In this document: in pieces, positions 3,546-4,178 of the stretch | How positions within the stretch are numbered: the first letter of the stretch is position 1 | Layout: every line of letters starts with the position of its first letter | IMG/VR virus record: IMGVR_UViG_2582580933_000012 | Coordinates: 1-6,371 of that record | Strand: one strand, 5' to 3' | Length of the DNA: 6,371 nt | Source: a virus | Taxonomy: Duplodnaviria > Heunggongvirae > Uroviricota > Caudoviricetes | Translations under genes and position numbers: made by a program | The notes under the pieces: model-generated | Database searches by the model: none | What the model saw: only the letters and a program-made list of their open reading frames with translations | Told to the model about the DNA's origin: nothing

Positions 3546-3791
3546 ATGTCAATCCTAAGCATTATGCTTTACATCACTGTATTCATGGCTGTCGCAGCGA
3601 CGGTCAGATATGCTGTGCTTAGGTTCTTGGTTTGGGTAAAGCCGAATGCGTATATTGAACTAACCTACACCGATCCTGAAGGCAGAACCGCTAAAAGGAA
3701 AGTCAGCGTTAGAAACGAAAATGACGCAGAAGAGTTGGCGCTACTGCTACGCGAACTCAAAACTCGCAACGAAGCAAGTGCAGGAAGGTGA
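3546..3791 (+). CDS. Cassette gene B: small membrane protein (81 aa, one N-terminal TM helix, charged C-terminal tail)
   Basis: ATG 3 nt after the A stop. N-terminal ILSIMLYITVFMAVAATVRYAVLRFLVWV is strongly hydrophobic; C-terminus rich in K/R/E. Confidence 0.7.
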   Translation: MSILSIMLYITVFMAVAATVRYAVLRFLVWVKPNAYIELTYTDPEGRTAKRKVSVRNENDAEELALLLRELKTRNEASAGR

Positions 3792-4178
3792 ATGGCGAAC
3801 ACTAAATCCTACCTGGCAATGCAGGCATGGTTTACCACCCTTATCACTGCGGGATTGAATTTCCTTTTTGACTGGCTTCCTCAATTAGCCTTCTTCAAAT
3901 CATTGGCGCCTGGAGCTGCTGTCGGCTTATCTCATGTGGTAATTCTTCTTATCGCTTACATAGGTTTGCCTACGCTTAATGATGTAAGAATGAAAAGGGA
4001 AATAAAAACGGCCAGAAAATTCATCACGAACTGCCTGGCCAACCCTAACCTAACACCAGACCAAATTGCGCACTACAACCAATGTCTTATCGATCTAGAC
4101 AATAAGCTATTAAAAAACATAAATATTCGTATTGATGCTTTATCTGACGCCGAATCGAAAGCTCAAGCAAACGAGTAG
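3792..4178 (+). CDS. Cassette gene C: small membrane protein (128 aa, two predicted TM helices, hydrophilic C-terminal domain)
   Basis: ATG abuts the B stop (TGA 3789-3791, ATG 3792-3794) with SD AGGAAGG at 3782-3788. Hydrophobic segments AWFTTLITAGLNFLFDWL and AAVGLSHVVILLIAYIGLPTL. Tandem stops TAG TAA. Confidence 0.7.
   Translation: MANTKSYLAMQAWFTTLITAGLNFLFDWLPQLAFFKSLAPGAAVGLSHVVILLIAYIGLPTLNDVRMKREIKTARKFITNCLANPNLTPDQIAHYNQCLIDLDNKLLKNINIRIDALSDAESKAQANE

Follow-up and report, generated by a model that had tools for sequence, protein, structure and literature searches.

Two small membrane proteins encoded beside the lysis genes of an E. coli prophage are most likely subunits of a candidate anti-phage module with a gp29-related large protein

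What are two small, abutting genes for predicted membrane proteins doing in the late region of a lambdoid prophage, on the strand opposite to the lysis genes? The window analyzed here, a single stretch of 6,371 nucleotides, comes from an E. coli lambdoid prophage and represents its late-regulatory and lysis region. Three plus-strand open reading frames, termed A, B and C, lie between Q and the tRNA/lysis block and are oriented opposite to their neighbors (Table 1). B and C had been singled out in an earlier note, made from the DNA letters alone, as a coupled pair with holin-like topologies. In our analysis they most likely serve an anti-phage module, as its membrane subunits, rather than lysis, because B and C invariably occupy the last two places in a cassette whose first product, A, is related to gp29 of mycobacteriophage MichelleMyBell (MMB).

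The slot between Q and the holin appears to be a general cargo hotspot, since toxin genes (for a scabin-related ADP-ribosyltransferase and a subtilase-family AB5 B subunit) occupy it in another E. coli lambdoid prophage (locus L020 of E. coli Combat2C1, 1053-2339). The tRNA cluster of the window is flanked by the late promoter region on one side and the holin on the other. Rfam recognized the four tRNAs only, and the one with the CAU anticodon is called Met by ARAGORN versus Ile by PGAP. This cluster may supplement codon usage or counter anticodon-nuclease defenses. The 36-aa ORF that PGAP annotates as an 'antiterminator' (within 2408-2566) is probably the leftover 3' end of Q or a spurious call. 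Read-through transcription from Q would cross C, B and A in antisense and would end at the strong intrinsic terminator listed in Table 1.

Table 1. Positions of the features discussed, numbered on the window
Feature	Position	Strand	Description
Rz/Rz1, lysozyme, YdfR/DUF1327 gene, S21-type pinholin		minus	
S21 pinholin	1582-1797	minus	PF04971, 1.4e-35 (Pfam)
Four tRNA genes, antiterminator Q, RusA, DUF968 gene		minus	
Four-tRNA cluster	2089-2398	minus	Gly-UCC, Thr-UGU, Lys-UUU, one CAU anticodon
PR'-like promoter	2436-2408	minus	
Strong intrinsic terminator	2543-2523	minus	just upstream of the PR'-like promoter, within the PGAP 36-aa 'antiterminator' ORF
Gene A	2664-3542	+	292 aa from ATG; PDC-S42, LAPAL_fam, phrog_3243
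A part 1			N-terminal alpha/beta unit (AlphaFold2 model)
A part 2	2904-2978	+	Gly-rich hydrophobic helix INALGLVAGGGVAAGGVLGIIEWL, residues ~81-105; Kyte-Doolittle peak 1.97
A part 3			beta-rich middle domain (AlphaFold2 model)
A part 4	3246-3515	+	C-terminal OB-fold-like barrel, residues ~195-284; beta1-beta2-beta3-alpha-beta4-beta5
Gene B	3546-3791	+	81 aa, N-terminal TM and charged tail; phrog_27630, 8e-57
B TM	3552-3638	+	residues ~3-31
B tail			50 aa, charged, predicted cytoplasmic; predicted beta-hairpin and helix
Shine-Dalgarno-like AGGAAGG for C	3782-3788	+	within the last B codons
B stop TGA / C start ATG	3789-3791 / 3792-3794	+	directly adjoining
Gene C	3792-4178	+	128 aa, TM hairpin and two-helix tail; phrog_26468, 6.7e-89
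C TM1	3813-3875	+	residues ~8-28
C TM2	3903-3968	+	residues ~38-59
C two-helix tail	3975-4172	+	residues 62-127, predicted cytoplasmic

B and C are open reading frames with exactly the boundaries and lengths that the earlier note had assigned to them, and the abutting stop and start codons and the AGGAAGG embedded in the 3' end of B were read directly from the sequence. By Kyte-Doolittle analysis in 19-residue windows, B has a single hydrophobic block (residues 1-31, peak 2.18), and C has a weaker block at residues 8-26 (1.32) followed by a strong one at 32-67 (peak 2.12). An AlphaFold2 model of the C family (pLDDT 76) has helices at 2-28, 30-57, 62-82 and 89-127, the first two of which may be read as a transmembrane (TM) hairpin. 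The hydropathy blocks and the modeled hairpin agree with the one TM segment claimed for B and the two claimed for C, and the charged tail of B and the hydrophilic C-terminal domain of C are likewise as described. Lysine and arginine residues are concentrated past the TM segment of B and past the second TM segment of C. Therefore, B is predicted to be N-out/C-in and C to be N-in/C-in, with both tails in the cytoplasm.

Residues M1, P33 and G46 of B are invariant across all A-B-C triads. In an alignment of the closest C homologs only (alignment A1, 46-99% identity), the invariant intramembrane residues of C are Q11, W13, T15, T16, T19, G21, P40, G41, S47 and H48. The most conserved residues of C thus appear to be polar or small ones within the TM helices, a pattern that fits specific helix packing rather than a passive anchor. 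Comparison with the Plesiomonas copy gave dN/dS values of 0.098 (B) and 0.099 (C), at dS of about 0.93-0.95 and dN of about 0.09; ratios of about 0.1 point to purifying selection on both genes. Both are present in every related locus, and B is recognizable even where gene callers miss or truncate it: RefSeq/PGAP leaves B unannotated in the record examined, and other gene callers miss it or shorten it to 58 or 75 aa. The exact B and C sequences occur in about 900 to 1000 or more public contigs. Taken together, these observations set the two genes apart from chance ORFs. A fusion of B and C through stop-codon read-through was also considered, given that the two share a reading frame and are separated by one TGA in the window and in some lineages (L003 and L006 were compared), and was rejected because B and C overlap out of frame in other lineages.

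Searches for wider relatives of the two proteins returned little. A word-based search of 5.8 billion proteins gave clusters from Enterobacterales only, 18 of them for C and 13 of them for B, and an exhaustive profile search of 1.84 billion representatives gave 16 relatives of C only, which are 126-135 aa long except for two fragments. Since all 16 profile matches form one small family, C has no link to a larger one. Neither B nor C matched a Pfam, NCBIfam or PADLOC model, and their PHROG families carry neither an assigned function nor a lysis label. Sequence searches of PDB chains with the C profile and the A profile gave nothing significant. At an E-value of up to 0.1, no Pfam holin family was found for B or C in the same search that recovered the S21 holin of the window (Table 1). 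B and C resemble class II holins or pinholins such as S21 in their small size, and C does so in its two TM segments and charged cytoplasmic C-terminus. However, they are not linked to an endolysin, lack a dual-start motif and always occur with A.

A, B and C are translationally coupled and are inherited and moved only together. Every relative of C or A examined belongs to a triad of A (284-295 aa), B (79-84 aa) and C (124-135 aa), with the C of Vibrio (161 aa) outside the usual range of lengths. B and C follow A in every proteobacterial locus with DNA downstream of A; the Tatumella contig (L008) stops just past B. In the window B starts 3 nt past the A stop. Over all triads examined, the A-B spacing runs from a 1-nt overlap to 8 nt and the B-C spacing from +6 nt to a 20-nt overlap, the B-C junctions in different lineages being 0, +6, -1, -4, -8, and -11 to -20 nt. 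Tight coupling is therefore conserved and shows co-expression, but the strictly fixed stoichiometry that the earlier note had read into it is not shown by these junctions.

The hosts of the cassette are Enterobacterales, Orbaceae and Vibrio, and its different mobile settings number at least seven. In this window, L003-5 and L025/26 it is antisense between Q and the holin; in Plesiomonas it directly follows cI on the same strand; in Serratia it lies on the edge of a P2-like prophage; a second E. coli lineage has it in the nin region, past hok; in Enterobacter it closes a serine-recombinase/VapE integrative island; in Gilliamella and Orbaceae it lies upstream of lysis genes; and in Vibrio it adjoins the integrase of a 14-kb PM2-like (Vinavirales) virus. 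On the Enterobacter islands (L016-L019), a gene for a 250-aa tRNA_anti-like (OB-fold) protein (5747-6499, opposite strand) adjoins the cassette upstream and is divergent from it. The GC content of the cassette, 42.9%, is below that of the neighboring phage genes (about 46-56%) and of the window as a whole (49%). Of 5426 complete E. coli genomes, 37 carry it, and a scan of the genome contigs with A found four loci only. Among 50,697 phage records, Megablast found no match to the cassette, and tblastn of C against phages was likewise negative.

This constancy of the triad in unrelated settings argues for a self-contained mobile cargo module in which B and C come second and third, after A, and against their belonging to the lysis cassette. 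The earlier note had already set them apart from the canonical S21 pinholin cassette on account of their strand, and the contexts without lysis genes lead to the same view. Its idea of immunity or abortive-infection membrane proteins also fits the evidence. What did not hold up is the treatment of B and C as a pair of their own, as they invariably come second and third in an operon that begins with A, a homolog of MMB gp29.

The longest ORF for A begins at a GTG at 2631 (303 aa). We take the ATG at 2664 as the start, with AGGA at 2652-2655, 8 nt upstream, and homologs that begin at the equivalent Met. Residues 22-299, numbered on the 303-aa ORF from GTG 2631, match positions 4-294 of the 302 in PADLOC model PDLC05015 (PDC-S42) at 3.3e-53, and A matches NCBIfam NF053583, a 'LAPAL motif-containing putative phage structural protein', at 1e-66. 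PDC-S42 is one of 145 'guilt-by-embedding' defense candidates (bioRxiv 10.1101/2024.01.29.577857). A agrees with the PDC-S42 model over nearly its full length, but PDC-S42 is defined as a single gene, whereas two more conserved genes are present here and in all relatives examined. A literature search for PDC-S42, the LAPAL motif, DUF7946 or the WP accessions of the family found no publications, and the supplements of the PADLOC embedding paper make no mention of S42.

A is also related to a phage protein with an established name. The MMB gp29-gp30 system is said to have been described by Dedrick et al. in 2017 as a prophage defense of Cluster N mycobacteriophages. PMC6426606 presents it as prophage-encoded and abortive-infection-like and states that it lets phage adsorb and inject DNA; in PMC11856565, a secondary source, gp29 is called toxic and gp30 a putative membrane protein. 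The GenBank entry of the Vibrio A homolog bears the note 'MMB_gp29_gp30__gp29'. By hhalign, the A-family profile aligns with MMB gp29 over its full length (prob 95.6%, E 1.3e-8, 267 columns), and the two have in common the motifs K-x-GSF, DExFLxRV and D(L/I)F and a C-terminal V-x-x-HR motif (KVIRHR in A, KVENHR in gp29). Foldseek against viral models matched A to a protein of Mycobacterium phage Pipsqueaks, which presumably belongs to the same mycobacteriophage cluster (N) as MichelleMyBell. As judged from these profile comparisons, A is a full-length remote homolog of MMB gp29. Since MMB gp29 itself matches PDLC05015 (1.6e-16), PDC-S42 and the gp29 family are one and the same, and PDC-S42 overlaps with a system that has already been named. 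That family thus goes by three database names: LAPAL_fam 'putative phage structural protein', PDC-S42 and DefenseFinder MMB gp29.

The correspondence is looser for the small proteins. In both systems a small TM protein gene is coupled directly downstream of the homologous large protein gene, and both are prophage cargo near lysis or immunity regions. However, MMB gp30 is a single 67-aa protein with two hydrophobic/TM segments, whose gene overlaps the end of gp29 by 41 nt, whereas two membrane genes are present here, B with one TM segment and a tail and C with two TM segments and a 68-aa tail. Comparison of the B and C families with MMB gp30 by hhalign detected no similarity (prob 0.2-0.3%), and B and C would be equivalent to gp30 by position and protein kind only. 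The hosts differ as well: DefenseFinder surveys found MMB_gp29_gp30 exclusively in Actinobacteria (bioRxiv 10.1101/2023.03.30.534874), whereas the hosts here are Gammaproteobacteria. A much more distant A-like protein (21% identity) is encoded at 2541-3440 of locus L011, a metagenome-assembled genome of an uncultured bacterium. It is followed by a 152-aa ORF, and the ORFs after it have no predicted TM segment, so that small TM ORFs are lacking there. Because of this context, very distant relatives of A may work without partners of the B/C type.

The AlphaFold2 model of A (pLDDT 81.6, pTM 0.74) falls into four parts (Table 1). Its Gly-rich segment, modeled at low confidence as a helix-loop-helix, holds a hydrophobic helix with a central glycine patch, ALGLVAGGGVAAGGVLGIIEWL, which the A family as a whole conserves. 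EACC1 was likewise defined by a conserved TM helix with a patch of glycines at its center (PMC7159879); it is a pore-forming defense effector released by proteolysis (bioRxiv 10.1101/2025.11.14.688446) and found in caspase-linked conflict systems (Kaur et al. 2020; Evans et al. 2025 preprint). EACC1 matched 12 of 31 A-family members (best E 5.8e-5) and DUF7946 matched 14 of the 31, all below the Pfam gathering scores; for the A of the window, the EACC1 score is 15.6 bits against a cut-off of 23.6. The EACC1 matches, weak but recurrent, fall at residues ~71-140 of A. Like EACC1, A has an alpha+beta module around the conserved glycine-patch helix. However, it is about three times longer, with an extra beta domain and an OB fold, and has small TM proteins for partners, and the protease that defines EACC1 systems is absent: no peptidase domain was found in A, B or C, and no caspase-like protease gene adjoins them in the cassette. 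Because the matches are weak and there is no protease here, EACC1 is best taken as a mechanistic lead and not as the family to which A belongs.

We consider it probable, by a modest measure, that A-B-C is a mobile three-gene proteobacterial variant of the MMB gp29-gp30 abortive-infection-type prophage defense, and we propose it as a candidate for one. B and C would be two small inner-membrane proteins, co-translated with A and carried as cargo by prophages and integrative islands. A would be a gp29-like protein that serves as both sensor and killer, latent, toxic and membrane-active. Its C-terminal OB-fold domain may recognize a ligand derived from infection, either nucleic acid or a phage protein, and in its EACC1/DUF7946-like N-terminal part the Gly-rich hydrophobic helix would insert into the inner membrane and permeabilize it. 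In the place of gp30, B with its one TM segment and C with its TM hairpin would dock A at the membrane and restrain it in the uninfected lysogen, by means of their conserved polar or small intramembrane residues and their cytoplasmic tails. Infection would release or re-arrange the complex, membrane integrity or potential would collapse, and the infection would be aborted. Of this scheme, we infer the defense activity in Enterobacteria, the restraint by B and C and the membrane-damaging effector step.

This explanation is favored because of the obligate linkage of A, B and C, their mobility, the homology of A to gp29 and the gp30-like position of B and C, and also because of the conserved Gly-rich helix of A with its EACC1 and DUF7946 matches, the published accounts of the MMB system as abortive-infection-like and of gp29 as toxic, and the conserved polar or small intramembrane residues of C. 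Counted against it are the lack of similarity between B/C and gp30, EACC1 and DUF7946 matches that stay below gathering scores, the missing EACC1-type protease and the NCBIfam name 'putative phage structural protein'. No sigma-70 consensus promoter was detected upstream of A, and this counts against it too, as expression in the lysogen is only presumed. A more specific version strikes us as unlikely as it stands: A-B-C as a membrane-attack defense in which the glycine-zipper helix of A would be held by the TM segment of B and the hairpin of C, and sensing by the OB fold would lead to a protease-free pore. If true, it would be related to killing of the EACC1 or gasdermin type but independent of a protease, and would supply the first mechanism for the gp29 family, which would then be widespread outside Actinobacteria.

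The main rival employs the same parts with their roles reversed, as proposed likewise for RexA/RexB and CarolAnn gp44/gp43. B and C would form the effector, an ion channel or pore to which each B-C pair contributes three TM helices and which oligomerizes through the long C-terminal helix of C, and A would be the cytoplasmic sensor that opens it. The likeness to Rex and to CarolAnn gp44/gp43 (Sbash gp30/gp31) lies in a prophage-borne cytoplasmic protein of about 290 aa with one or more small membrane proteins, and the proposed outcome is likewise membrane depolarization. In lambda, rexA-rexB are located downstream of cI, and the Plesiomonas cassette occupies that slot, directly downstream of cI and on the same strand. 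The polar TM residues Q11, T15, T16, T19, S47 and H48, invariant in the closest C homologs, would suit a channel, and the modeled terminal helix of C, at 39 residues, could oligomerize; the CarolAnn/Sbash model provides the precedent of a sensor with a membrane channel (PMC6426606). On the other side, homology to RexA/RexB is ruled out, as hhalign gave probabilities of 0.4% for A with RexA and 0.2% for C with RexB, and no RexA-like match was found for A, which has an OB fold and not the RexA fold. RexB and gp43 each combine four TM segments in a single protein. In addition, it is the large protein, gp29, that PMC11856565 reports to be toxic in the homologous MMB system, and the EACC1-like hydrophobic helix resides in A. 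A channel made of B and C is therefore a minority reading, which we regard as doubtful.

The remaining rivals, exclusion, non-defense cargo and control of lysis timing, are less likely. Sie, Imm and Charlie gp32 are models of exclusion by a block of DNA entry, and A-B-C could similarly be an inner-membrane complex that stops phage DNA from entering and leaves the cell alive. A prophage-encoded module with small predicted membrane proteins as subunits is what such non-abortive superinfection exclusion would look like, and the modeled OB fold of A could bind incoming DNA. However, PMC6426606 describes the homologous MMB system as permitting adsorption and DNA injection, and B and C are predicted to have their soluble parts in the cytoplasm, which makes exclusion improbable. 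Still less can be said for other lysogenic-conversion cargo, such as envelope or stress modulation, or for A as a virion protein with B and C as its assembly factors. The NCBIfam name of A and the label 'hypothetical protein' on all database entries would allow such roles, but the cassette is transcribed against the late operon here, lies on a non-phage island in Enterobacter, and encodes in A a homolog of a validated defense protein; we judge them very improbable. Last, the holin/antiholin pair suggested in the earlier note, or modulators of the timing of the prophage's own S21 pinholin lysis, can be set aside almost entirely: B and C do have the sizes and TM numbers of small holins, and the cassette adjoins lysis genes in several prophages (the window, L003-5, L009/10 and L025/26), but neither protein matches a Pfam holin family, the cassette is on the strand opposite to the late operon here and elsewhere follows cI (Plesiomonas) or lies on an Enterobacter island without lysis genes or in the PM2-like Vibrio virus, the prophage already has a complete lysis set, the constant partner is A and never an endolysin, and the Q-to-holin slot is a cargo hotspot that holds toxin genes in another E. 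coli prophage.

It was already known that gp29 is a validated defense protein in mycobacteria and that PDC-S42 is listed as a candidate. What appears to be new, on the comparisons made here, is that the MMB gp29-gp30 and PDC-S42 database entries describe one family, that the gp29 family reaches into the Gammaproteobacteria, and that it forms there a three-gene unit with two conserved small membrane proteins unlike gp30 in sequence. Three entries, DefenseFinder MMB gp29-gp30, PADLOC PDC-S42 and the NCBIfam 'LAPAL putative structural protein', can thereby be linked. E. coli, Salmonella, Klebsiella, Enterobacter, Vibrio and bee-gut bacteria carry, in prophages and islands, gp29-type relatives of a defense thought to be specific to Actinobacteria. 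The two small membrane proteins of the three-gene unit had been overlooked, B being missing from the RefSeq record examined, and this serves as a warning that defense candidates defined as single genes may be without their small-ORF partners. The cassette also offers a genetically tractable E. coli model for gp29-type defense.
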